From positions 192,001 to 256,000 of the forward strand of contig CAWIIQ010000003.1 of NCBI GenBank assembly GCA_963836185.1: a stretch of 64,000 nucleotides of DNA, in the 5' to 3' direction. This stretch comes from Candidatus Krumholzibacteriia bacterium. Lineage in GTDB: Bacteria; Krumholzibacteriota; Krumholzibacteriia; Krumholzibacteriales; Krumholzibacteriaceae. How positions within the stretch are numbered: position 1 is the stretch's first letter; each line of letters opens with the position of its first letter. The translations under genes were made by a program, and so were the position numbers. The notes beneath the pieces were generated by a model, which made no database searches, was not told where the DNA came from, and saw nothing but the letters and a program-made list of their open reading frames with translations. Positions 32,525-60,771 of the stretch are shown here, piece after piece.

Positions 32525-33951
32525 ATGAAGATCAAAGGATGGATAGCTCGCGGCGGCGCTGGCGGCCCTGGTCGCGGCGGGATGCTCGCGGCAGGCCGAC
32601 ATAGGAGGCAAGGGGCTGGTCCGGCTCGATGAGAGGGTCTATGCCCTGATAGCGTACGGGCCCGCGTCGGCTGAGGGCCTCGGCGCGAACTCGGGTTTTA
32701 TCGTGGGGGATGAGTCGGTCCTCGTGGTCGATTCGAGATTCACCTACAACCACGCGAGGCAGCTGCTCAAGGCGGTCCGTTCCGTCACCGACCTTCCCGT
32801 CAGGTATCTCGTCAACACGCACTATCATCCCGATCACGTCTGGGGCAACTCGATCTTCCGTGCCGAAGGAGCGATCATTCTCGCCAGGCCGGAGACGAGT
32901 ATCGAGATGGAGAGGTACAGCCCGGTCTATATGGATTATTACAGGGGCCGAAAGCCCGATGTCTACGAGATGATCAAGGAAGTCGAGCCCGCCCTTCCCG
33001 ACTCGTTCGTTACCGATGAGCTCCGTCTCGATCTCGGGGCGATAGAAGCGGTCGTCAGCTTTCTCGGGACCGGCGCATACGGCAGGCGATCTCGTCGTCT
33101 CTGTCCCGTCGAAAAGGATCGTTTTCACCGGAGGACTGGTCAGCAACGGGTATCATCCGAACATGGGCGACCAGGGCGCGGATTTCGTCGAACTGGCTCG
33201 TCATGCTCGACAGGCTCGGCGACAGCGCAGCCGAAGATCGTTGTCCCCGGGCAGGGGCCGGCCGGAGATGCCGGTATGATCGAAATTCAGAAAAGTTATC
33301 TCGTGGACCTGACCGCCTTGACGGTCGATGCGATGAGAAGGGGGCGCCCCCTTTCCCGGGCGATCACTCGAGATCAAGATCCCCGGGACAGAGGGATATC
33401 TGCAGGACAACCTTCTTCCCTTCAATATCCAGGCAATATACCGTACGAAGGCTCTCGAAACGGTCTCACCCCGCGTCGAGATGGATATCCCCGCCGTGAT
33501 GGCTGTAAGCGATGCCTACGGGGGACCCGATGCCGGCATGGTCCAGTGGGTCGTGCAGTCGGACGAAGGATATCTCGAGCTTGAGATGAGCTGGCAGCCG
33601 ACGAGCAGGAACGAGGTGATCCTCGAGGACATCCACGACAGGATAGCCCGGTATGAGGGATCCAGTGACGGGCTGTACAAGCTTACCCTGGAAGGCTCGA
33701 AGAAGCTGATAGTGGGAGAAGATACCGCTCCGGCGGCATACGGCAAGTGGGCATATCGGAAGGGTATGGGGGCGAGCGGCGGTGGAGCCTGGTCGTGGAC
33801 GATGATCCTGATGGACGGGAAGAGCTACTCTTTCAGGATGCTCACAAATACGGGGGGCGACTCCGGGCTGGAAGAACGGAACATCGCCGCCCTGGAACAG
33901 ATCATCTCGATGGTCAGGAAAAAGCAGGGCGTCACGCGCCGTACTTCTTGA
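32525..33951 (+). CDS. MBL-fold metallo-hydrolase, probable lipoprotein, with extra C-terminal domain (several frameshifts)
   Basis: ANSGFI, NTHYHPDHVWGN, FTGGL and VVPGQG pieces across frames; VAAGC lipobox-like segment; C-terminal part is ORF 33481-33951. Confidence 0.7.
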
Positions 33952-44041: not shown

Positions 44042-44070
44042 ACGGCCCCCTTCGCGGGGGCCGTTTTTTT
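44042..44070 (+). terminator. Intrinsic terminator
   Basis: ACGGCCCCC-TTCGC-GGGGGCCGT followed by a T run. Confidence 0.88.
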
Positions 44071-44249: not shown

Positions 44250-44393
44250 GCAATGGCCCGATCGTAGGAGTTTTCCGTGACCGCCGTCCAGGCGGAACAC
44301 GGATCTTGAAATCAGACCTCCATAGACGAGATGTCCGTGCATCACCGCGTGCGAACTCCATTCGGACTGGAGGAAAACAAGGAGGACAGCCAG

Positions 44394-44885
44394 ATGAGAA
44401 GGAGTCTTTCCGTAGCGATCCTTCTTCTCTTCGCAGCCGTCTCCGCAGGCGCCGCCTTTGCCCAGGGCCCCGAGCTCAAGGGTGAGATGGCAGCCGCGAA
44501 GATCGTTGTCGATGAGGAAAAGGGAGAGATCGCTCTGCCCGCCGAGCAGGTCTACCCGAACGATATGGTCGAGTATACGCTGAAGTATACGAACTCCGGC
44601 ACCGCTACGGCGGCCGGTGTCGACCTGATCGGGCCCGTTCCGGTCGGAACGGTCTACATCGAGAAAACAGCAACCGACATCCCCGGACTCAAACCCATGT
44701 ACAGCATCGACCAGGGCAAGACCTGGCATGAAGCGCCGGTAATAGTCGAAGTCGCCCGCAAGGACGGGACGGTCGAGAAGAAGAAGGCCGACCCGGAGTT
44801 GATCACTCATGTCAAGTGGTCGATGGCGGAGAACCTCGATGTCGGGGAAGAGATCATGGTCAGCTACCGCGTCCATGTGAAGTAG
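44394..44885 (+). CDS. Small secreted DUF11-like protein (incomplete fold)
   Basis: Signal peptide (AFA); YPNDMVEYTLKYTNSG, GPVP, YSIDQGKTW and THVKW motifs; ends YRVHVK. ATG after GGAGG. Confidence 0.8.
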   Translation: MRRSLSVAILLLFAAVSAGAAFAQGPELKGEMAAAKIVVDEEKGEIALPAEQVYPNDMVEYTLKYTNSGTATAAGVDLIGPVPVGTVYIEKTATDIPGLKPMYSIDQGKTWHEAPVIVEVARKDGTVEKKKADPELITHVKWSMAENLDVGEEIMVSYRVHVK

Positions 44886-44987: not shown

Positions 44988-47676
44988 ATGACTTTCAGAA
45001 AGTCAGCTGGGCTCCTGGTGCTCCTGGCGATAGCGCTTGTCGTATCGTCGGCTGCCAACGCCCAGACGCCTGCCGGAACATTGATTCAGAACCAGGCTTC
45101 GGCCACGTTCCAGGATCTCTCCGGCAACACTTACACGGCGACCTCTAATCAGGTCACCACGATCGTACTCCCGGTATACGGGGTATCAGTCCTTCCGGAT
45201 GGTACCGTGGCTGCCCCGGGTATGGTCGGAACCTCGATACCCGGACAGACGGTATACTACAGCTACAACCTCACCAACACGGGTAATGACCCTGAAGATT
45301 TCACGATCGTACCTATTATCGACGCGGCCACGACGATGACGCTCGGGCTGGGCGATATAGACATCTACCATGATGTCAATGGTAACGGCGTGCTCGATGG
45401 CGGCGAGCCCGTTATCTCGGCTGGCGGCGTGGCGGGCAATACCGGCCTCGTTGCCGCCGGTACGACGATTCAGCTTCTTGTCGAGTATCAGGTCCCCGCG
45501 CTGGCTGCCGCCGGCGAGGTCGCCTATGTCGGCATGACGGCTACATCGGTCACCGACATCACCCAGGTAGATACGGGAAACATCCACCAGACAGACGTAG
45601 TGAGCGATGCTTCGCTGACCGCGACGATGTCCGGCCTTCCGGCCAGCCTCGATCCCGGCGACATCGCGACCTACACGATCACCGGACAGAATGTCGGTAA
45701 CGACATCGCCAACGGCGTCACCGTAGCTTCGGTAGGCCTGACCGGCGTTCTCGTATATGACATCCTCCCGACCGATCCTTCGACCGGTAACCCGCTGGCT
45801 CTCTCCGGCGCTCCTGCCGGCGCTCCCGCGGGCGGCACGGTACTGTACCTGCCTGCCGGAAGCCCGACAGTCGGTAACCCCGAGACGTGGGCATGGTCGA
45901 CCTCCGCCGCTGCCGGCGACATAGCGGTTGCTTATGTCACCAACGGCGGCCTGACGATCGGCATGAACTACAACTTCACCTATGACGTGACCGTTCCTCT
46001 GACGATGCCTGCCGGTATCATCAACAACTTCGGCGATGTCGCCTACGTGGACAACAACGCCGGCACGGCCGATCCGACGATCGTCACGACAAACAACACG
46101 CAGATCGATGTGAACGTCCTTGCCGACGTCCTCGTCGGTCCGAACGGCGTCCCCGATGCTGGAACGCCTCCTGCGTATAACGACGATTCACAGGCTGTCG
46201 CGAACGCCTACGCGAACGAGACGGTCGACTTTATCAATACTGTAAGGAACGACGGCAACGCCGCGGACGTTATCAATATCGTCCTCGATGCCGGCGCTTC
46301 GACATTCCCTCCGGGATACGGCATCCAGTTCTTCCGTATTGACGGTGTCACTCCTCTGAGCAATACCGGCGCGGACGCGATCCCCGATGTCGGCAACATC
46401 AACCCCGGCGCGACGCAGGACTTCATCGTCCGAGTCACCATACCGGGTAACGCCGTTGCTGGCGGCCCCTACCTGGCCGTAATCAACGCCGTTTCAGAGA
46501 ATGTCCCGGCCGAGCTCAACGTCACCACCGACGAGATCACCGCGGTCAACCCCGCGTCGGTCGATATCGGCAACTATGACGGACTGGTCGGAACCGACAA
46601 CAACCCGCTTAACATCGATACCGATCCGGGCCTGTCGGTCGACTTCGCTCTCGACGTGATCAACACAGGTGGCTCGAGCGACAACTTCGATCTGTCCGCG
46701 ACCATCCCGGCCGCCTGGACAGTTACTTTCTATCTCGATGCCAACGGTAACGGCATTCTCGACAACCCCGAGCTCACCCCGATCGCGAATGTCGGGCCGG
46801 TAGCCGCGGGCGGCGAGGTCAATGTTATCGCGCGCGTCGATGTTCCCGCCGGCGAGGTTCCCGGCGTGAACGCTACGACATTCAGAGCCGCTTCGGCTCT
46901 CAACGCAGGCATCTTCGACGAGATCGCCAACACTGTGACCGTGCTCGGCGCGGCCGCCGTGACGATCACGCCCGACAGAAACGGTACCGGTACCGCTAAC
47001 GGAACGATCCGTTACCAGCATACCGTGACCAACACGGGTAACGTCGACGATACCTTCATGCTCAGCGCGCTCAGCTCGAACGCGTGGAGCTACGCCTTCT
47101 TCGATCTGGCCAACAACCCGATCCCTTCGGTCACCCTTGTTGCCGGCGCCACCCAGGACATTATCGTCCAGGTGTCGATCCCCGGAGGCGTGGCTGTTGG
47201 AACGATCGAGACCGGCACGATCACAGTTACCGGTAACGGTACAGGCGCCACCGATTCGGCTGTCGACGTCACGACGATCGTCGCCGGAAACCTCGTACTC
47301 GCGAAGTTCGTCAATCCTGTGGGCAATCAGCTTCCCGGAACGGAACTGACCTACCGCACGGACTACTCGAACGTGGGTGTGGCGGACCTGACAAGCATAG
47401 TCATCTATGACGCGATCCCTGCCTGGACCCAGTTCAGGGTCGGCTCGGAGTCCGACGGCACACTGGCTCCCGGGATCACAGCGATGACGATTGAGTTCTC
47501 CAGATGACGGCGGCGCGACGTGGGTATACGTGCCTGTCGAGCGGCGGCAGGCGGAGCCCCCGCGGGCTTCGACGCCACTCGTGACCAACGTACGGTGGAC
47601 CCTCACCGGTACGCTGGCCGGCGGCGACAGCACTGTCGACGGCGTCTCCCTCATAGTGAGGATCATCGCGGAGTAG
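44988..47676 (+). CDS. Large secreted multi-Ig / DUF11 protein, putative major filament subunit (frameshifts near 47500-47580)
   Basis: Signal peptide; mature N-terminus QTPAGTLIQNQASATF; repeated TNTGNxxD Ig modules; C-terminal LVLAK..IYDAIP..FS.DDGGATW..GAPAGFD..VTNVRW..VRIIAE*. Confidence 0.85.
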
Positions 47677-47689
47677 CAGTACGCAAAAA

Positions 47690-47778
47690 TAAGGCGGGAG
47701 GGGCCGCAAGGCCCCTTACGCCTTACAGTTAAATGACGTATTCAGAGGCAGGTCCCCATGGCGGGGCCGCCTCTGAAT
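47690..47778 (+). terminator. Tandem hairpins (partial terminator or mRNA stabiliser)
   Basis: TAAGGCG..GGGGCC-GCAA-GGCCCC..CGCCTTA and ATTCAGAGGC..GCCTCTGAAT. Confidence 0.65.
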
Positions 47779-47891
47779 CAGTAAAAGGGGAAAAGGCGGA
47801 AAGACGGAAGGCACAAACGCAGCAACTGCAATAAACAGAGAGAGTTATGAAGTAAGGCACATACAGGAAAGTTAACCGGCGAGGCGGCGCC

Positions 47892-50800
47892 GTGAAGAGA
47901 AGGAATTACATCACTGATTTTTCCACCGGGTCCACCGGCAGGGGGATACTCCTGTGCGCGCTGGTCCTGGCCGCCATTTTTGCGCTTTCCTCGCCCGCAT
48001 TCTCCCAGATCCCCCCGGCCGGCACGGTAATATCGAGCCGGTCGTCCGCATCGTACGTCGACAACGGCAATCAGCTCACGATCCTCTCCAACGAAACAGC
48101 GTTCAGCGTTCTGCCGATGTTCGGGCCCCTTCTGACGCCTGACGGCACTTCCGCCGCGCCTGCCGCCACACGGACGGCGTTCAGCGGGGAGACGGTCTAC
48201 TACCCGTTCACACTGACCAACACGGGAAACGCCGACGATACGTTCGGATTGGCAACGGTCCTGGCGGCGCCATCCGATTTCGTTCCCTCGGCCACGGCGG
48301 TCTATCTCGATGGAAACGGTGACGGAGACGTCGACCCCGGCGAACAGGAGATCACAGAGGCCGGACCGCTCGCTTTCGGGGAGACGGTGCAGCTCGTCAT
48401 GTCCGCCACCCTTCCTTCCGGCCTGACCGGGGGAGAGATCGCGCACATGGATCTCGAGGCGAGATCGCTCGGCGACACATCGCAGGTCGATCGCGGGAAT
48501 GTCGTACGCGTCACGGCACGCGACGAGGCGAGAGTGGAACTTGCGCTCGAATCGGATGTCTCATCCGTCATGCCCGGCGGATTTGTGACATACACGATGC
48601 GGTACGTAAACACCGGTGAACGGACCGCGACCGGTGTCTCGATCACCAGCATGATCGACACCCTTGGATTTATCGATGGAACAGAATACCTGGCAGGAAG
48701 CGCGTCCGCCGTGCCCGCCGGACTGATCGAATATTTTGACGGCGAGACGTCGGCCTGGATCGATGTCGCCCCGCCGGAGAACAGGGTAAAGGGCGCCCGC
48801 CTGCGCCTCGATACCCTCGCCCCCGGAGAGGCGGGATCCTTCTCACTGACCGTCCGCGTCGACGACGATCATGCCCGCGGCAATATCGTGAACACGGCCA
48901 CGGCCGGATTCACGGGAGGCGACGGGTTGCCCTACCAGCTTCTTTCCAACGAAGTGACGGTCCTCGTCGGCATGATAAGCGAGGTCTGGCTTGGACCGCT
49001 CGGGGATCCGCTCGCGACGCCCGGGTCGGATGACGACAGGGTCGTGATCTCACTCGGCGCCGCGGATTCGGTCTGCGTCTTCAGGCATGAGATCCTCAAC
49101 GCCGGTAATTTCGCCGACACCTTCAGCCTCGTGCTTTCCGACTCGGTGATGATCCCGTCCGGCTGGCAGGTCGAGTTCCTCGGTCCCGGCGACGTGGTCC
49201 TTCCATCCCTTTCGGCGTGGTCCGCGAGGCTCGGTCCGATCGAGATCGGAGGAACCAGGGAAGTCGCGGTAAGGATATCGGCCAGCGCCGAGATACTCCG
49301 CAGCTTCACGGGCCGGGAATTCGCTTTCGATGTCGATGCGAGATCGCTTGTCGACGATGCGGCGCGTGACGAGGTGCGGAACGTGCTCGTCAAGGGGGAC
49401 ATGCCTCTGCTGTCGGTCAAGCAGTCGATCCGCGAGCCGAACGCGATGATCGGCGACGTCGTCAGTTTCATCATCACTGTCGAGAATATGACCGAAGAGA
49501 CGGTCATCGACAGTGTCAAGCTCGTCGAGAACTTCCCCTCAGGGCTGAAATTCTCCAAGGGGTACGAGCAGCCCGTCATCGAGAACAACAAGCTGATATT
49601 CGATCTCGGGCAGCTTCTGCCTGGAGCGAAGAGAGACATCGTCATCAGGGCGACAGTCGCGGCGGGGCAGGAGAAAGACGAGCTCGTAACGACCGCCTAC
49701 GTCTACGGCTCGACGCAGTACGGCGAGGCCGCTGAAGACGGTCCTGCCTACGCGTCCGTCAGGCTCTACGAGGGAGAGTTCACCAGGCGCGGGATCGTGA
49801 TGGGAAGCGTCTTCATCGACCGTGACGGAGACGGGATTCGCGGTCGGGAAGAAGAGGGTGTCCGCGGGGCGGCCGTCTTCTACGAGAAGGGCACATACGC
49901 AGTAACTGACTCGAGCGGGCTCTGGTCGATACCGGGCGTCGAGGAGGGAAGGCACGTCTTCCGTGTCGATCCCAAGTCGCTGCCCGATTCGCTTGTGCCC
50001 GGTCCGGCTGGACATTTCGGAATGGGTATCGCGGGGCAGTATCTGATCGATCTCGCCCCGTCGGGCAACCGCCGTGTTGATTTCCCTCTGCAGGTGACCG
50101 AGGTCGCTTCGGACGGGGACGCTTTCGCCGCCATTGAAAGCGACAGCGCGGCGGTTACCCGACAGGGCTCCGTCGGTACCGAGACCGCTGCGGCATCAAC
50201 ATCACCGGAGAGCAACGGCGCGAGCGATGACGCGGTGTCCGGGCCGGCGGGGCCGGAGAGTTCAGCCGATACGTCAGGTACGTATGATGCCCTTAACCTT
50301 CCGGGAACACTCTTCGCCGCGGGAAGCTCCGTGATGGAGGAGATCCCGCTGCGCGAGGTGGCGGCCCTGAGTCTCTGGGTGCGCGAGCATCCCGGCTGGA
50401 AGATTGAGATCGCGGGACACTCGGACAGCACGCCGATCAGGACGGCGGATTATCCGTCCAACTTCGAGCTTTCACTCGCCAGGGCGCGGAGCGTATACCA
50501 GCTCCTGCGGATGAACGGGATCCCTGAGGGCGTGATGGACTACACCGGATACGGCGCGAGGTTCCCCATCGCGAGCAACGACACGGCCGATGGAAGGGCG
50601 AAGAACAGGCGAGTCGAGATACGCGCCCTGCCGCCTGAGGGTTACGCGGGAGTCGATCCCGACATTCCTGCCGCGCTCGCGATGCCCGACACGACGGCGC
50701 CGAAGGAGTTCCAGCTCGCAGACGACGCAGGCCTCTGCGCCGAGATCGTCAAGCCGGCCGAGGGAACGATCTTCACTGAGAGGGACGGGATCGACATCGA

Positions 50801-53730
50801 AGTCGTCGCTCCTCTCGTCTCTACGGTGGAGCTCTACGTTAACAATATCCCTGTCGGCAGGGAGAAGATCGGGCAGAAGCAGATCGACATCGGCGAAGGC
50901 ACGCTCGGATTCATATTCTACGGTGTCAAGATCTCTCCGGGACTGAACAATATCCTCGTCGTCTGCCGATCACAGGGTGAGAAGAATGTCTGCGTCCGCC
51001 ACGTATATCTCGCCGGCAAACCCTCCCTGGTCGTTGCCGAGCACAGGGATGTAGAGGTGCCGGCGGACGGCAGATCGAAACCCGGGCTCGTGTTCCTCGT
51101 CAGCGACGAGCACGGCCTGCCCGCCAGGGACGGACTGTTCCTCACCGTGTCGGGCCCCGGCGACCTGATCGACAAGCTCGACGTCAATCCTCAGGTAAGG
51201 GGCGTACAGGTAGCCACGAAAGACGGCCGCGTCTCGGTCGATCTGCCGCCCTCCGATTATTCGCGCAGGGAGAAGATAGCCGTTACGCTTGAGGATCTCA
51301 CCGCCGAGAGCCGCCTCGAGTATGTCTCGCCGATGCGCGACTGGTTCCTCTTCGGATTCGGCGAGGGGGACGTCGGATACAGCAGCCTGACGGGGACCGG
51401 TTCTACACACAGGACATACGAGCGGTATCCCGACGGTTTCTATGCCGAGGGCAAGCTCGCCTTTTACGGCCAGGGCGAAGTAAGCACGGGCCATCTCCTG
51501 ACGATGGCGATCGATACGAGGCCGATAGTCGAGGATAAGCTCCTTGACCGGATCGAACCGGAAAAATACTACCCGATATACGGCGACGCCAGTGAACTGA
51601 GATTCAACTCGTACTCGAAATATGGTACCTACGCGAGACTCGAGCACCGCAGCTACAACGCGATGATCGGGGACTACAAGACAGAGTTCGGCACGATGGA
51701 GTTCACCAGATACGACAGGACCTTCTCCGGATTCAGGGGATGGGGGCGTCGCGGCCGGTTCGATGTCGCCGGGTTCATGTCTTACAGCGACCAGATCACC
51801 GTCCAGGACGAACTGCGGGCGAACGGGACTAGCGGATTCTACTTCCTCCACAGGTATCCGCTTCTCGAGAACAGCGAGAAGATCAGGATAGAGGTCCGTG
51901 ACAGGTACCAGCCGGAGAAGATCGTCCGCGTCGACTATTACAGCATCAACAAGGATTACGACATCAATTACCTGGACGGCTCGATACTGTTCAAAAAGCC
52001 GATCCTCGCCTTCGACGAGAACTTCAACCCGAGGCATATCGTCGTGACATACGAGTGCCGCTCGGCCGATGACAACAATGTCATCGCCGGTATCCGGCCG
52101 ACCATCGAACTGGCCGACTCGCTGATGATGGGAGTCACGGCGGTCATCCAGGACGAGGGCGAACACAATTACTCGCTTGTCGGCGTCGATCTTGCCGGGC
52201 ACCTGTACAAGGATCTGTTCATCGAGAGCGAATACGCGCACAGCGAGAAGTTCATCGTCGGAAGCGGAGACGCCTTCAGGTTCAAGCTTATGGGACGGCA
52301 CGACCGGATGCTTCGCTGGAGCGCCTACTACCGTGATATCGACGAGAGCTTCTTCAATCCCTCATTCTCCGGAGGAAAGACAGAGCTGGGCAGCAGGAAG
52401 ATCGGCGGCGGACCTCGACTGGAGGATCGGACGCGGATGGTCGCTGATCTCGAACGGATTCGGACACAGGTACGCACAGCGAAACGAGAAGAAAAGTTAC
52501 ATCGACGTAAAAGGAAACTATCGCTCCGGCGCGCTCGATGGATCCTTCGGCCTGGCGCACGCGACGTTCAGCGATTCGAGGGACGGCTCCTCCGCTTCAG
52601 GGCTTCTCGTCGCGGCAGGAGGGTACGGCAGCGAGAATACGAAGGCCGAACTGCAGCTCGACAAGAACGTCACCGGCGATGAAGTGCCCGATTATCCCGA
52701 CCGGATACAGGCGAAGCTGACACAGAAGATATGGAGATGGCTCAACGGTGTCCTCTCATACGAATACAGGTCGGGTAGCCGCTCCGGCTCGAGGCATCTT
52801 ACTCAGCTCGGTATCGAGTCGAGCATAACAGAGAATCTCAGCGCCTACTCACGCTACCGGATGGAAGGCGCGATGAGCGGTGAGCGCTCGCAGGCGATGA
52901 TCGGGATGAAGAACAGGTTCAGGCTCTCCCCCGGGCTGACATCGACCCTCTCGGTCGAGAAGCTCGCTACGGTAAGCGGGACTGATCTCGAAGACTTCAC
53001 GGCGTTTGTGACAGAGTGGCTCTTTACGCCGCCGGGTAAGGATTACAAGTTAAGCGGCGGGTACGAGATCAGACTCGACAGGCAGAGGACGAAGCATCTC
53101 GTAGGATTCGCGGCACTCAAACGCCTCAGCGAGACCTGGGCGGGTCTCATCAAGGTCGATGCCTGGCTGTCCGATGAAAAAGAGGGGATGAACCAGTCGA
53201 AGAGCTCGGGAAGGCTCGGCTTCTCGTACAGGCCGGCATACAAGCCACTGACTGTTCTTTCGATGATAAAGGGTGTTTATGAGAAGAACAGCCCCGCTCA
53301 TCCGTTCGGGGTAGACAAGGCCCTTACCGTGATGACCGAGGCGAACTATCACCTCAACGACAGGTGGGAGATCGAGGGCAAGGTCGTCGGCCGGTGGGTC
53401 GAGAACACCTTCAGGCTGCTTACGGTCAGCTCATCTTCGTACATGTACCAGGCCCAGCTGATCAGGATGTTCGGCAAGGCCTGGGACGTAAGCGTCGCCG
53501 GGCGCGTCGTGCAGCAGATAGAGACGGGCACCCTGAGATACGGCGGCGGGATCCAGGCCGGCAGGATGATCCGCGAGAATGTCTGGGTCGGCGCCGGGTA
53601 CGATTTCGGCGGTCACAGGGACGAAGACACCGAACTGAACGAATTCACGCAGAACGGGTTCCATATAGGCGTCAAACTGAAATTCGACGAGAAGCTGCTC
53701 GGCTATTTCAACGGCAGCTCGGGAGATTGA
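47892..53730 (+). CDS. Giant outer-membrane protein: Ig/DUF11 + SdrD-B-like + OmpA-like + C-terminal beta-barrel (frameshift near 52405)
   Basis: N-terminus paralogous to the 44988 protein; GSVFIDRDGDG; AGHSD..NFELSLARA..NRRVEI (OmpA); DPEKYY-like PEKYYPIYGDAS; amphipathic strands ending KLKFDE. Confidence 0.82.
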
Positions 53731-53759: not shown

Positions 53760-56660
53760 ATGATGAAGAGAAGTATCAAAAGTAAGACATTCAGAACGGC
53801 AGCACTCTTTGCCGTCCTTGTCATATCGGCAGCTGGAAGTGCCGGCTCTGGCGAGACAGTGATCGAAGGCGGGTTCGAGGGTGGATCGTTCGGTGCGGGC
53901 TGGGTGCATGGCGCGGCAAGGCTCAACGGGAATGAGAACGCCTTATGGGCCGACCATGATGTCGTTCTCGACCTTCCGTACACGGGAACCTGGTCTGCGC
54001 TGCTCGGCTACAAATACACAGCGGTCGCGAAGGACCGCTATGGATACATGTACCAGGAAGTCACGATCCCCGCGGACGCCTCCAGCGCAGTGTTCACCTT
54101 CCGTTACAGGCAGCAGGGATTCGATGGGCGCGCAAACGATCCTTTCGTGGCGGCAGTACGCGACCTGGCGGGCAACGTCCTCGCTACGATCGTCGATGTC
54201 GCCTTCGACGATCAGAGCAGCCACTACAAGGACAGCGGATGGGTCGATGTCACCTACGACATGAGCGCGTTCGCAGGCCAGACGGTACGTCTCGATTTTC
54301 GCCAGCACAACCTCCAGGACAACAGGTTCGAGACGTGGGTCTTCGTCGATGACGTCTCGTGTATATACAGGAAACATGTGGACCTTGCCGTCGACGGAAA
54401 CGGCGACGACGAATTCGGGGCCCCCGGAACAGGATCCGGGGGAATATCTGTTTCCAGCGGCGTGGCGGGTGGGACGGTTACCTACCTCATAGATATCGAG
54501 AACGAAGGTCTCGATATCGACTCCTACACAGTCTCCGCCTCACCCCCCGCCGGCTGGAGCGCCGTAATAAGATACGGCGGGGCCGACTATACCTCTCCAT
54601 GGACCACTTCGGCTGTCGCGCCGGGAACGACGATCTCGGCCGAGGTCATTTTGACTATATCAGCTGGTGCACCGGCAGGCAGCTATTCATCGATAGTCGA
54701 TGCCGTTTCGGTGTCCGATGGAACGAGATACGACAGCGTCACGCTCGGCACCACTATCACTTTAGTCCCGTTCGTGGCCGACCTCGTCATCGACGGTGAC
54801 GGACTGGGCACGATCGATCCCGCCGGAGGAGGCGGATCGTCGTCGGGAAGTGCCTATCCCGGAGCCTTTGTCGACTACGCTATCGAGCTTGTGAACGGCA
54901 GCAGCCAGCAGGACGATTTCACGATCAGCTTCGATTTCGATCCGGGAATAAGCGCAGTAATTATAGACGGAGCCCTGACCCATACGGCTTCGTTCAGTTC
55001 CGGGACGGTCGATTCCGGCGACTCGCGGACATATACGCTTCGCGTGACGGCCGATCCGACCTTTGCAGGAGGGGATTATCTCTCACACGTCTACGCCGCA
55101 TCCTCCGGCGATCCCTCCTCCGTGGACGGCGTCACGGCGACACTGACGGTCATCGCTCCCGTGCTCGACCTGGTCATCGACGGTAACGGAGACGGGATAT
55201 ACGATCCTTCCGGCAACGGCTTCGGTGGTGCGTACACCGTCGACGGCCTTCGTGGCACGACCGTTTATTTTTCGATCGCAGTGCAGAACGAGGGGGGAGT
55301 AGCGGATTCCTACACATTTACCTGGGACAGGCCTTCCGGCAACTGGTCCGCCGTGATCAACGACGGCACAACGGACCACGCTTTCCCGTGGACCTCTCCA
55401 GCCTTCGCTCCGGGTGAGGAGCGGACGTACACGCTCGCCGTCTCTATACCGAATAACGCGGCTTTCAATACCTGGGTATCGATCCTCGATGCAGTATCGG
55501 TCAGCGACGGCAGGATCGCGGAGAGTGTCTCGGCCGTCATCATGGTAAGCGACAAGATCGGGGTAGATGTCATCATCGACGGTAATGGTGACGGGGTTTA
55601 CGGTGGCCAGGGGACGGGAGCGGGCGGGTTGTCCTCCATTATGGCGGCGCCCGGCGACACGGTGACATTCGCGATAGTGGTCGAGAACGAGGGCGGAGTG
55701 GACAGCCACGACATCCAGTGGAACACTCCGGCAGGATGGTCGGTCCTTCTCGATGGGCAAGTCTCCCCGGTAGCCTCGGCGCCGGCGGGAGCCTACACCC
55801 TGCAGGTGATAGTGCCGCTGATGAGCCCGGTCGGGACCTTCGACATAATCCTCGACGCCATAAAGAGCAACAAGAACTTCTATGTCGACAGCGCGACCGG
55901 GCGGATCACCGTAACGGCCTCGCGACTCGTCGACGGTGTGATAGACGGGGCCGGCGACGACATCTTCGGCTCGGCGGGCCTCGGTGACGGCGGAACGTCC
56001 ACGCGCGGGACGGTGGCTGGAGTGGCAGTCGCGTTCATCGTCGAGATCCAGAACCAGGGGACGTTCGATGAGAGCTATACGGTAACGTGGAGCGAGCCGG
56101 CGGGCTGGACCGGGATCCTGGATGGATCGGTGCAGCCTTTCTCGACCGGTGTGATTCCCTCCGGAGGATCCGTGTCATACATCTTCGGGGCGACTGTGCC
56201 ACTGAGCGAGGTGCCTGGAGATTTTGATTATATCATCGATATAGTCTCAATCGACGATCCTCTGAACACGGAGAGCCTCACGGCACGTGTGACGGTTTAT
56301 CCTCCGCCGACGGTCGACCTGGTCAAGGCTGTCGACCTGGCCGCTGCCCAGCCGGGCGAGGTGGTCACCTATACACTTACATACTCGAACCCGAGCGCGG
56401 CGCCCATCATCGAGATCGAGATCGTCGATCCGGTACCGCCCGAGATGGAGCTCGTCCTTGACGCGTACGGCGCGGGGAGCGATATCTCCTGGACGACAGG
56501 GGCGGGCACAGTCTACCTTACGGCCGACCCTGCCGACGCAGATGAGGCCCTCTTCGACCCTGGCACGGGCGTCCTGCAGGTCATCCTCTCGCGGCAGGCA
56601 CCGTACATGCTCTCGACGGGTGAATCAGGCGTCATCGAGTTCCAGGTTAGAGTCAGGTAG
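53760..56660 (+). CDS. Secreted adhesin-like protein: jelly-roll-like N-terminal domain, 5 Ig repeats, C-terminal DUF11
   Basis: GGFEGG..W, YQEVTIP and FAGQTVRLDF..VDDV; five D.vIDGxGD repeats; VDLVK..PGEVVTYTL..IVDPVP..FQVRVR*. Confidence 0.82.
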   Translation: MMKRSIKSKTFRTAALFAVLVISAAGSAGSGETVIEGGFEGGSFGAGWVHGAARLNGNENALWADHDVVLDLPYTGTWSALLGYKYTAVAKDRYGYMYQEVTIPADASSAVFTFRYRQQGFDGRANDPFVAAVRDLAGNVLATIVDVAFDDQSSHYKDSGWVDVTYDMSAFAGQTVRLDFRQHNLQDNRFETWVFVDDVSCIYRKHVDLAVDGNGDDEFGAPGTGSGGISVSSGVAGGTVTYLIDIENEGLDIDSYTVSASPPAGWSAVIRYGGADYTSPWTTSAVAPGTTISAEVILTISAGAPAGSYSSIVDAVSVSDGTRYDSVTLGTTITLVPFVADLVIDGDGLGTIDPAGGGGSSSGSAYPGAFVDYAIELVNGSSQQDDFTISFDFDPGISAVIIDGALTHTASFSSGTVDSGDSRTYTLRVTADPTFAGGDYLSHVYAASSGDPSSVDGVTATLTVIAPVLDLVIDGNGDGIYDPSGNGFGGAYTVDGLRGTTVYFSIAVQNEGGVADSYTFTWDRPSGNWSAVINDGTTDHAFPWTSPAFAPGEERTYTLAVSIPNNAAFNTWVSILDAVSVSDGRIAESVSAVIMVSDKIGVDVIIDGNGDGVYGGQGTGAGGLSSIMAAPGDTVTFAIVVENEGGVDSHDIQWNTPAGWSVLLDGQVSPVASAPAGAYTLQVIVPLMSPVGTFDIILDAIKSNKNFYVDSATGRITVTASRLVDGVIDGAGDDIFGSAGLGDGGTSTRGTVAGVAVAFIVEIQNQGTFDESYTVTWSEPAGWTGILDGSVQPFSTGVIPSGGSVSYIFGATVPLSEVPGDFDYIIDIVSIDDPLNTESLTARVTVYPPPTVDLVKAVDLAAAQPGEVVTYTLTYSNPSAAPIIEIEIVDPVPPEMELVLDAYGAGSDISWTTGAGTVYLTADPADADEALFDPGTGVLQVILSRQAPYMLSTGESGVIEFQVRVR

Positions 56661-56715: not shown

Positions 56716-56819
56716 CCCTATGTAACACCACGGCAGCTTATCCTTTTATTCGGCCCGCGCCAGTGGTCCCTCGACCCTTTACGGCCGGATTACAGTTTCT
56801 GTCATTGTCTGGAGGGGTG

Positions 56820-59800
56820 ATGATGAGACGCGCCCTCGTTCTATTTATTCTCCTGGCTATAATTCCGTCCACAGCACCGGCCCAGTCTCCTGAAATCGGG
56901 CGTATCGCGCTCTACGCCGATTCATTCAGAACATCCAGTGAAGTCGACCTGCCCGAGGCCTACACCTCGTTCGATCTCTACATCTTCTGCCAGCCGAGCG
57001 AAAACGGCATGTCATGCGCCGAGTTCGCCCTGGCCTCTACGACAGGATCGATGGTCGTTGCCGGGGGTGACTGGCACGATGGGTTGTCCGTGACGCTCGG
57101 GGATCTGATGACCGGAGTGAGTGCGTGTTTCGAGGAGTGCCAGACCGACTGGGTCTGTTTAGCCAGGGTGACGATGCTGAACTCTGATACGGACCCGGCT
57201 GTGATAGAGGTAGTGAGACATCCGGAGGCAGGTTACTACCAGTTCAGCAGCTGCCTTCCCGACCGTCCGATCGAACCGGTCTTCTTCGGGCCGGGCCTCT
57301 GTGTCAACTCTGACTGCACGCCTGATACAGATCCTCCCGTACCTGTAAGCATAGCTGTCGAGGACGATCTTCACATGACCCTGTACTTCGATGAAAAGGT
57401 ATTCGAGCCCGACGCTCTGGATCCGGGCAGCTACATCGTCTATTCGACAGAGGGCACACCGGATTCCATCCCTGTCATCTATGCGCTGCTGCGGCCCGAG
57501 GAGGACAGGGTGTGGCTGGTGCTCGGCGAGCATCTCACCGCGGACCCTTACAGGCTGGAGATAAGGGATCTCAGGGATGTCACGGGCAACCCCTCCCTGC
57601 CCGGAACCGGGATAGCGTTCGGCGGCGAGGATACTACTCCTCCCGATCTTCTGTACGCATACGCTCCGGACGATTTCAATGCGATCCTGGTCTTTACCGA
57701 AACGCTCGATCTAGTCTCGGCTGTTGATATCTCGAACTATACGACCGGTTGCGATGGTTGCCCCTCTGTCCCTCAGCCTGTCTCCGTGTCGATGAGGTCC
57801 GACGGCAGAAGTGTGTCACTGGCCCTCGACCGGCAGATGGACCAGGAGTGGATATACAACGTCACGGCCGGGGGTATCTTCGACATCTCGGGTAATGAGA
57901 TGGCTGCGCCTGTAACGGTCTTTTTCAAGGCGCCCGATACGACCCCGCCATCTATCGGCGAGGTATCGATCTCGTCGGATACCACGTTGAGGATACTCTG
58001 GAGCGAGACGCTCGATCCCGCATCGGCGGTCGATCTGGAGAACTACTCCTTTTTCAGGGACGGGCCGCCGGCCGAGCCGATGAATCTTGTATCAGCCGAA
58101 CTTTTCGGCGGCATCCATGTCAGTCTCGATTTCGAGCCCGCGATAGAGATCGATTGCGGGTATACACTGTTTGTAAGCGGGGTGACGGACAGCTCGATGA
58201 ATGTGATGCTTCCCGACACCTTATATGTAACACCTCTGGATACGATCCCTCCGGTCCTGCTCGGCGCTGAATGCATGGGGCTCCGGGACGTCGACCTGAC
58301 ATTCGACGAACCGGTCGATCCATCGGTGGCGGGAGCGACCGGATTTTTCCAGGTCTATCCGGCGGGAGATCCGGGGACTCTCCTTGATATAGACGGGATC
58401 TCTCTCTATCTCGGTGATACGGTAACCCGCCTTCATCTGATCGATGACCTCGCACACGGGATGAGTTACACGGCCCGCGTCATCAGCATCCGTGACCCGG
58501 CCGGGAACTCACTGCCCTCTCAGCAGCGCGATTTTACCTGTTACGACATATATTCCCCCGAAGTCCTCGAGATATTCCTGTCCGACCTCACGCATGTAAA
58601 TATCCGGTTCGATGAGATGGTCGATGGCGCGGCGGAACAGACGGCCAGCTATATCCTCCGTGAAGCGGCCGATTCCACTGCCGTGGTCGATCTGGCCTCT
58701 GCCGCCCTTTTCGATGGAGCGACGCGGGCAGTGCTGATAACGGCGGCGCCCCTCGGTATTGGCGAGATGTATATCCTGAAGATGAGCGGGATAGGGGACA
58801 TGATCGGGAATATGGTCGACCCGGACACTTCTTGGACCTTTATCGCTGAAGATACGGTCGATCCGGTCCTTCTCGGCCTTACCGTGACCAGCGACAGCAT
58901 CATCCATCTGGAATTCAACGAGCCCCTCGACCCGGCGGCGGCTGAGGATATCGCGAAATATGCCGTCGTGGAAACGGGCGACACATCAGTCAGGCTGCCG
59001 CTCCAGTCGGCATCGCTCGATCCGGCCGGCACTACGGCAGATCTCGAGATCGACGGGCGCGCAGCGATCGGGACGACGTACGCCGTCTGGATCGCCGGTG
59101 TGACGGATGTAGCGGGAAACGCATTCTACGGGGCCTCCGGCGACTTCCAATTCATCGACGACATCCCTCCGCGCCTGCTCTCCGTTGCCGGGGTGACGAC
59201 GAGGGATGTCATCGTCTTTTTCGATGAAGCGGTCACGGACGCCACGGCCGGTGACGAGCTCAACTACAGGCTGTATCCGACGGGCGACCCGGCATCAGAG
59301 GTCGGCATATTCCAGGCCGACAGACTCGCGGACCAGGTGACCGTCAAGCTCATGCTTTTCGAGGACCTCGCTCAGGGTACGGACTACACCCTCGATGTCG
59401 CCGATATCATGGACCTTGCCGGACATGCCATCGAGCCGGTTTCGATCGAGTTTCATTTCCTCGACCTCTTTCCGCCGGGGATCGTGGATGTGGACCTGAT
59501 CGACCCTTCGAGGCTGTCGATAGAGTTCGACGAACCTGTCGATTCGGTGACGGCAAGTGATATCAGGCAACTACGATGTATATCTGAGTTCTGATCCATC
59601 TGAGCTGATATCTGTGAATTCGATAGACTGGATGACCGGCGAGGTCCGGCTGAACCTCGCTACCGAGCCCCAGCCGAACGTTGACTACACGGTAAGGATC
59701 GATGGGGTCGAGGACCGGTTCGGCAATGCCTGCAGTGGACTCTACGGAAGCTTCAGGCGTGATGTCCTCGCGCCGTCGACAAAGATGTACCTCTTCGCCG

Positions 59801-60771
59801 ATGAATACAGGAGCACACACGATGTAGATGCCGATGTTCTTTACCAGCCTTTCAGTTATTACGTCTGGCTCGAGCCCGGCGGCAACGGAGTCTTCAGCGT
59901 CGATTACTCCCTGAGCGGGCCGGAGACGTATGTCCCGATAGGTATAGAGATGAATCCTGCCTGTGTGTCCGGGGTCCTTGGGGACCCCTGGATCGGGCAC
60001 ACCGTCGAGCTGTCGGTCTGTGAGCACGACTGGCTCTGGATCGCCCGGATCGACTGTATCTGTATCGATCCTGGAGAGCAGGAGGTAGTATGGATCGTGC
60101 CGCATCCCGGCGAGGGAGCGGTACAGGTCGCTTCATGCCTGGCAGGAAATCCGGTGGAGCAGGTGGTGGCGACATACCCGCTGCTCATAAACGCTGTTTA
60201 CATAGGCACGATGCTGGAGAGCTGGGACGTATCGCTGAGTGGCGGCGGTATCGAGCTGACCTGGTCGATCCTCCAGGCGGCGGGTTCGCCGGGGTTCGAG
60301 GTCTCACGAAGTTCCGAAGGCGCTGATATGTGGCAGAACCTCGACAGCGAGCTGATCCGCGGCGACGGCCTGAACTATTCGATGCTCGACATCGATGTCG
60401 AGTTCGGCCTGTCGTACAGGTACCGGGTCGAATGTGTCGAGGATGACGGGCGAAAGATCCTTTTCGAAACAGGTCCGGTCGCGACCCCGGCCATGCCGCT
60501 CACGCTCAGGCAGAACAATCCCAACCCGTTCAATCCTTCGACCCGCATCGAATTCCTCCTGCCGCGTCCCGGCCACGTCCGCATCGAGGTGTTCGATGTC
60601 AACGGGAGGCTGATCAGGGTCCTCGCCGACGGGCACTTAGCGAGCGGCGGGCATTCGGTCGACTGGGACGGACGGGACCGCACAGGCACGATGGTATCGT
60701 CGGGAGTATATTTCTACAGGCTGACGGCGGGGAAAGAGAGCCTGTCGCGGAAAATGGTGCTTCTGCGGTGA
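56820..60771 (+). CDS. Surface protein with 8 Big_5/SbsA-like Ig repeats and FlgD-Ig/T9SS-like C-terminal domain (frameshift near 59565)
   Basis: Signal peptide; DTxPP..FdE.vD...A....Y..D..GN repeats; LRQNNPNPFNPST..WDG..SGVYFYRL..KMVLLR. Confidence 0.82.

Follow-up and report, generated by a model that had tools for sequence, protein, structure and literature searches.

A lysine-less acceptor half-domain encoded with a predicted isopeptide-locked fibre in Krumholzibacteriota: a candidate acceptor-mimic pilus chaperone

The window analysed here is a stretch of 64,000 nucleotides from a Candidatus Krumholzibacteriia bacterium (GenBank assembly GCA_963836185.1, contig CAWIIQ010000003.1, positions 192,001 to 256,000, forward strand), and all positions refer to it unless stated otherwise. 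It contains a four-gene cluster with the genes of a small protein, a major (shaft) subunit, an OmpA/barrel protein and a tip-like protein, in this order (Table 1), and a fibre with an intermolecular isopeptide bond is predicted for it. The upstream gene is closed by a terminator-like hairpin and the small gene therefore opens the cluster; no sigma-70-like promoter was found on the plus strand. The small gene sits 5' of the stem-loops between the major and the barrel genes, which are a possible expression step-down after the major subunit. The major and the barrel genes are each broken by a 1-nt frameshift (47504/47506 and 52406/52408), but these are likely assembly errors, because both genes are intact in relatives (the major gene with 894-899 aa in L001, L004 and L005) and splits are seen in further genes near it, while the frames with RpoB, RpoC and EF-G motifs have only 634, 350 and 438 aa. 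Together with further single-base frameshifts at 33380, 34090 and about 59560, and also in G000 contig C1 at 79000-86000, they point to indel errors throughout the assembly, and gene breaks are not to be taken as pseudogenes here. Directly 3' of the tip gene, at 56763-60771, there is apparently one frameshifted gene whose product combines Big_5 repeats with a C-terminal sorting domain of the FlgD/Por type; it is found downstream in genome G065, too.

Table 1. Features of the cluster, in positions of the window.
Feature	Position	Strand	Remarks
Terminator-like hairpin ending the upstream gene	44042..44070	+	
Shine-Dalgarno-like AGGAGG	44380..44385	+	8 nt 5' of the small-gene ATG (sequence)
Small dead-acceptor gene	44394..44885	+	163 aa: leader and 7-strand CLIPPER/DUF11 half-domain without the last two strands
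Putative Sec-type signal peptide of the small protein	44394..44462	+	basic start, hydrophobic core and AFA|Q, recognised by eye; without lipobox
Met32 codon	44487..44489	+	isopeptide Lys position (Lys715 of 9IFR; Lys7 of the acceptor alignment)
Family-specific inserted hairpin 1	44499..44537	+	small-protein residues 36-48
Gly80 codon GGG	44631..44633	+	catalytic Asp position
Family-specific hairpin 2	44739..44786	+	residues 116-131, V-x-Y...DG...
Major (shaft) subunit	44988..47676	+	N-terminal donor hairpin, C-terminal acceptor
Donor hairpin of the major subunit	45063..45170	+	predicted ligand
Key residues of the major subunit	45090; 47304; 47409	+	Asn35 (donor); Lys773 and Asp808 (acceptor)
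Two strong stem-loops between major and barrel genes	47691..47783	+	-60.9 kcal/mol over 122 nt
Predicted outer-membrane barrel protein with an OmpA domain	47892..53730	+	about 1950 aa in relatives
Barrel N-terminal donor hairpin	48006-48125	+	Ser replaces Asn
Complete internal domain of the barrel protein (control)	48522..48971	+	small-protein fold and donor-like hairpin in one chain
Tip-like protein	53760..56660	+	no N-terminal donor; C-terminal acceptor Lys856 (56325), Asp890 (56427)

The translated small protein contains the motifs YSIDQGKTW, THVKW and LIGPVP and ends with YRVHVK*. The original prediction, made from the DNA alone, had described it as a stand-alone single DUF11-like domain, and this is borne out by the 163-aa reading frame and by matches to Pfam DUF11 (PF01345; 24.9 bits and thus barely above the gathering cut-off of 24.6, E 2.8e-5, residues 51-94) and NCBIfam TIGR01451 (29.9 bits against a cut-off of 24, E 4.2e-7). 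There is no PapD family among its Pfam and NCBIfam matches at E<=0.1, and it has a single 140-aa domain, not two; by its sequence, it is a member of the DUF11/CLIPPER family and not a PapD-family chaperone. The motifs that it was said to share with the acceptor of the major subunit (there FS.DDGGATW and TNVRW) do exist, but beyond the frameshift at 47504/47506. Its named relatives, with 57-91% identity, belong to Ca. Krumholzibacteriota. A lipobox-like motif was found in only 1 of 104 leaders of the family, where it lies upstream of the probable start, and C-terminal tails have a few residues at most, two tandem duplicates excepted. In P0060 and P0139, the dead acceptor is tandemly duplicated within one chain of 319-320 aa, and both copies lack the Lys. 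A search for longer homologues, and thereby for fused forms, yielded nothing but 13 generic proteins with DUF11 repeats, in which 23-62% of the query is covered, and this is weak evidence; the ESM Atlas returned only DUF11 or hypothetical clusters, and a metagenome scan with a distant homologue as query gave three uninformative loci. D. radiodurans DR_0685, which is listed as DUF11 and has been detected in proteomes, is at most a candidate for the same protein.

The model of the small protein, based on 66 sequences, reached a pLDDT of 96.7, and the CLIPPER structure 9IFR is its tied-best structural match among 48,161 chains. Only residues 19-109 of 9IFR are covered (Z 8.1, rmsd 2.1, 90 aligned), the Z being middling because two strands are missing, whereas the control, an internal barrel-protein domain that is complete (pLDDT 96.9), covers residues 19-140 (Z 13.2, rmsd 2.0, 120 aligned). 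The small protein is thus modelled as a CnaA-like Ig beta-sandwich without the last 31 residues, which form two strands including the isopeptide Asn; Asn806 of 9IFR, the isopeptide residue named in the available part of PMC12617251, falls in the missing stretch. In profile-profile alignments, the small family and the terminal acceptors of the cluster subunits match each other (prob 99.3, E 1.6e-20) and stop at the same strand, and together with the different coverage of 9IFR this agrees with the earlier claim of a truncation at the strand where the acceptors end. The small family matches residues 11-118 of the control domain (E 3.7e-22) and the N-terminal donor hairpins match its residues 121-149 (prob 89, E 2.3e-6), and this control is a natural fusion of both halves, a Rosetta stone in which a small-type part and a donor-like hairpin are joined. 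As read from the secondary-structure strings of the models, strand C in its first half and the short A' strand have a pairing partner in the control but none in the small protein, and the two extra hairpins of the small protein therefore leave its groove unfilled. The donor-hairpin profile has no counterpart anywhere in the small family (prob 0.9). A PDB sequence search with the family gave nothing at E<0.1 and a Foldseek search with the model nothing at E<=0.001, and no solved chaperone was prominent among the 48,161 chains, from which novelty of the fold does not follow. From the models and motifs, the small protein is predicted to be open-grooved and to have neither an anchor motif nor a donor-like strand.

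The residues of the isopeptide reaction were compared in 164 homologous domains, selected by E<1e-12 and a coverage of at least 95 profile positions; below 70% identity, 106 of them remain. Met32 falls on the acceptor Lys in a global hhalign alignment, and also on Lys715 of 9IFR when the structural ranges are combined with its sequence (model residue 1 being chain residue 19 and Met32 chain residue 27), if the first strand is ungapped; the acceptor profile aligns its Lys and Asp with those of 9IFR, the Asp count being one residue off the numbering in PMC12617251. Lys is found at position 32 in none of the 159 homologues without a gap there and at positions 28, 30 and 34 in none of 158, while position 32 is hydrophobic in 91% of the homologues and the core positions remain hydrophobic. 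Because the nucleophilic Lys is always absent, the small protein is unable to form a Lys-Asn bond. This loss adds to the original prediction, which had called the domain catalytically dead for the Gly at the place of the acceptor Asp. The Gly itself (in LIGPVP) was confirmed as Gly80 by profile-profile alignment, but the Asp is not consistently absent from homologues as had been expected: among the 106 non-redundant homologues, position 80 is Gly in 56, Asp in 24, Asn in 11 and another residue in 15. A quick tree of 103 rows, without the 3 that are gapped at position 32, needs about 10 changes to account for the Asp80 forms, and a same-phylum clade of 12 rows keeps Asp80 (support 99), with intact clusters that encode Lys/Asp acceptors. 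Homologues that retain the Asp had been named in the original prediction as an outcome that would speak against it. "Catalytically dead" stands with regard to the bond, but the loss of Asp is not diagnostic. A Lys that is always lost, beside an Asp that drifts, would be expected under selection against covalent capture. All CLIPPER isopeptide features, namely the complete fold, the first-strand Lys and the catalytic Asp, are absent from the small protein of the window.

Lys36 was considered as a shifted nucleophile and rejected; it sits in inserted hairpin 1, is Lys in 46/106 homologues, and occurs together with Asp80 in 14, about 10 being expected if the two were independent. Met32 tends to go with Gly80 (41/49) and Ile or Val32 with Asp80 (17/22), a co-variation that fits a contact but is confounded by kinship. 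In the acceptor alignment A3, Lys is present in 23/23 by construction, as the selection pattern required it, which is not the case for the invariant Asp; in a profile-based set of 40 shaft acceptors, both residues are present in 31, only Asp in 7 (mostly due to a cut that began after the first strand), only Lys in 1 and neither in 1. In the internal complete domains of the major protein (domain 2, 45620-46110) and of the barrel protein, the Lys is replaced by Met or Leu, too, and such domains often retain Asp and Asn.

The small gene is tightly linked to donor-bearing subunits. It is present in full length in 65 of 151 genomes of the phylum (66 loci with E<=3.4e-19; acceptor domains, which matched partially and more weakly, were excluded), and the donor motif in 68; 64 genomes have both, 82 neither and only 5 are discordant, although the genomes belong to six related families and the counts are thus not independent. 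The discordant loci lie at assembly breaks, with a contig end in G038 and a contig start within 1.4 kb in G062, G133 and G146. The fifth discordant genome, G065, was considered as a natural loss of the small and major genes, which was rejected for a run of N just 5' of the barrel gene. In 65 of the 66 loci, the donor motif follows 89-215 nt 3' of the small gene. The cluster also occurs in Thermus (in T. thermophilus HB8 as TTH_RS10905-RS10925, with TTH_RS10905 as the small gene and TTH_RS10910 as the gene of a subunit with donor and acceptor), Deinococcus, cyanobacteria, Pacificitalea, Novosphingobium and Acinetobacter. In a plasmid cluster of Acinetobacter haemolyticus (L096:5867-8722), the small gene is intact and the shaft gene is in several pieces. 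In Thermus and Deinococcus (L038, L061, L062, L064, L104, L106), two genes encode what is elsewhere one barrel protein, the first a donor-bearing N-terminal part and the second the barrel, and D. gobiensis has three such clusters on three plasmids.

With the barrel as query, 26 records of a plasmid collection were obtained, 12 of which were examined. The small gene is present in 5/5 split-domain clusters and absent from 7/7 loci with a single-chain adhesin and a barrel (the whole record was searched for 4 of these), and no N-terminal donor match was found at these seven loci either, one start lying outside the stretch examined. These seven loci, from Ralstonia, Sinorhizobium, Loktanella, Devosia, Eleftheria, Vibrio and Croceibacterium (L097-L103), encode the barrel along with a giant DUF11-repeat adhesin of 1,860 to more than 4,000 aa, possibly an undescribed two-partner-like export system that shares the barrel. 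The P1 cluster of D. gobiensis, with shaft, barrel and tip, has no small gene anywhere on its 433-kb plasmid, and the gene is therefore not required in cis; the sister plasmids P2 and P3 have one small gene each, directly 5' of a subunit with donor and acceptor, and on P2 no barrel-sized gene is found within the 6 kb examined near it. As judged from this gene content, the small gene follows the self-polymerising subunit, and its product may act in trans.

Some hints also come from composition and codon usage. The charged fraction is 0.20-0.29 in 36 small proteins and 0.07-0.18 in 40 shaft acceptors, but that of tip acceptors (0.08-0.26, n=6) overlaps with the small proteins, and composition therefore does not set the small protein apart from a tip. 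Codon usage percentiles are 92-95 for the small gene, 91-98 for the major, 71-84 for the barrel and 60-66 for the tip gene, with a weak reference set of 10 motif-picked genes, some of them fragmentary. The first-gene position, the strong ribosome site and the codon usage suggest that the small protein is made in subunit-like amounts.

Fibre subunits that bond spontaneously and covalently need some means to stop this reaction in the periplasm, and the best reading of the small protein, to which we give slightly more than even confidence, is that of an acceptor-mimic chaperone which binds donor hairpins non-covalently in the periplasm. The role given to the protein in the original prediction, a reversible hold on donor hairpins as the inverse of PapD, is thereby partly supported, with the Lys instead of the Asp as basis. 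The small protein would be exported by Sec into the periplasm and would likely stay there. The donor hairpin of a subunit would leave the translocon first and fill the groove of the small protein, where, without the Lys, no amide with the donor Asn could form and the grip would remain reversible. Such masking would keep the subunits from locking prematurely, on their way to the predicted outer-membrane barrel. There, the acceptor at the fibre base, with its Lys and Asp, would take over the hairpin as the fibre grows, and the formation of the covalent bond would make this exchange one-way without ATP. For the reversible binding there are possible precedents: a catalytically dead SpyCatcher (SpyDock) binds its tag 1:1 and reversibly with a Kd of 0.07-0.75 uM, as given in the available part of PMC6465384, and BsaA N35A still oligomerises non-covalently, according to what is available of bioRxiv 10.1101/2024.11.04.621531. 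Points against the chaperone are the P1 cluster of D. gobiensis, with no small gene on its plasmid, and the subunit's own acceptor groove, which masking of the donor would leave uncovered.

The same groove evidence would also serve a non-covalent cap or initiator that takes the distal free donor hairpin of fibres without a tip adhesin and leaves the cell along with these fibres. This is unlikely, yet it survives best among the alternatives. The acceptor-only architecture that the small protein has in common with tip adhesins and caps is exactly that of the tip position, some tip acceptors are equally charged, and in archaeal threads the gene of a putative cap adjoins that of the major subunit (PMC9715654). 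That thread cap is, however, expressed below its subunit according to the same source, whereas subunit-like amounts are suggested here; the clusters seen in full encode Lys- and Asp-bearing tip proteins besides the small one, and a permanent cap would gain nothing from the loss of a Lys that has nevertheless been lost in 159/159. By such indirect evidence, namely the tip genes already present, the Lys loss, the charge and the codon usage, a chaperone is favoured over a cap. Termination of the fibre at its base cannot be expected from a protein that, by its predicted features, has no donor, no lipobox and no tail; the base terminators PapH, TafF and ElrB have a donor strand and/or an anchor, and the small protein neither.

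A main task at the barrel, either as a cover of the donor hairpin there or as a catalyst of hairpin transfer, is improbable for the small protein. The barrel protein does have a donor hairpin, with Ser for Asn here and in 14/25 of these proteins, and docking on a partner is conceivable for the two extra hairpins, which are conserved, but the small gene adjoins the shaft gene and not the barrel gene, on P2 of D. gobiensis it even lies beside a shaft gene without an adjacent barrel, and the barrels with single-chain adhesins have no small gene, though no donor match either. A slightly poorer case can be made for a PapD-like donor chaperone, in which one of the two hairpins that protrude from the model would fill the acceptor groove of the subunits. 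It would shield the otherwise open acceptor groove, and the pilus chaperones in the available parts of PMC11821415 and bioRxiv 10.64898/2026.10.17.759780 all donate a strand; the donor hairpins, however, lack profile similarity to the small family, the inserted hairpins are mostly charged and variable except for turn glycines, and the conserved open groove and the targeted loss of Lys would be left unexplained. Least probable of all is a role unrelated to donor hairpins, with the groove closed by self-association or another ligand, for although some DUF11 domains lack isopeptide residues for a reason not known (PMC12617251, available part), as do internal domains of this cluster, the protein is cut precisely at the acceptor boundary and is linked to donor-bearing genes across phyla.

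Anti-polymerisation chaperones that bind or shield a polymerisation segment until export are known from curli (CsgC) and flagellin (FliS), but these have unrelated folds and are not known to be paralogues of the subunit's own acceptor. Among the systems compared here, each from the available parts of the sources, CLIPPER/DUF11 domains (PF01345, 9IFR, PMC12617251) share the CnaA-like Ig fold, the sequence family and the strand order; the small protein differs by being stand-alone, by lacking the last 31 residues with the Asn, by the replaced Lys and by two inserted hairpins, and the CLIPPER bonds known there are intramolecular and found in adhesin stalks. The proposed principle is that of SpyDock (SpyCatcher2.1 E77A S49C, PMC6465384), an unreactive split isopeptide domain with non-covalent peptide binding, which is, however, engineered, has a CnaB fold, binds a single strand and has the catalytic acid removed, whereas the small protein is natural and CnaA-like, has a two-strand hairpin as predicted partner and has lost the nucleophile. 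PapD and FimC (PMC11821415, PMC9715654) and the WxL chaperone ElrE (bioRxiv 10.64898/2026.10.17.759780) are likewise encoded with a strand-exchange pilus and proposed to prevent premature polymerisation, and chaperone-usher pili have the same polarity as the predicted fibre, with an acceptor-only tip and a donor-only base, but these chaperones donate a strand to the groove of the subunit whereas the small protein is itself the groove, and ElrE is, unlike the small protein, membrane-anchored. A donor strand with an isopeptide lock, as predicted for the subunits here, is described for BsaA of C. perfringens (intermolecular; bioRxiv 10.1101/2024.11.04.621531) and for the archaeal thread protein Saci_0406, which has Saci_0405 as putative cap (PMC9715654); those systems are monoderm or archaeal, belong to other families and have no barrel, and no acceptor-mimic chaperone is described in the available parts of these papers.

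In the literature searched, to which subscription journals and supplements did not belong, neither the cluster nor an acceptor-mimic chaperone was described. If the chaperone reading is true, the logic of this pilus chaperone would be opposite to that of PapD/FimC and ElrE, and it would solve the control problem of an apparently widespread, undescribed pilus class that is found in Krumholzibacteriota relatives, Thermus, Deinococcus, cyanobacteria, and alpha- and gammaproteobacteria. It would also be the natural counterpart of the engineered SpyDock, with a natural set of tag, catcher and dock for protein engineering.

The donor of the barrel protein suggests a second disarmed part. It has Ser in 14 of 25 proteins, Asn in 10 and Gly in 1 (six were read by eye), and the donor Asn is present in 28/28 proteins of 600-999 aa, four of which are N-terminal halves of split barrels; with the Ser donor, the basal link of the fibre to the barrel may be non-covalent. 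A wider view, which is tentative and rather doubtful as a whole, is that of a phylum-spanning diderm pilus with autocatalytic covalent assembly, in which a dead socket masks the plugs, a dead barrel plug holds the basal socket in many lineages, and a double hand-over is driven only by isopeptide formation. The Ser donor was noted in the lineage of this window, with L001, L004, L005, L053-L060 and L065, and in clusters of family f6 one of two short subunits often has Ser or Thr, too.
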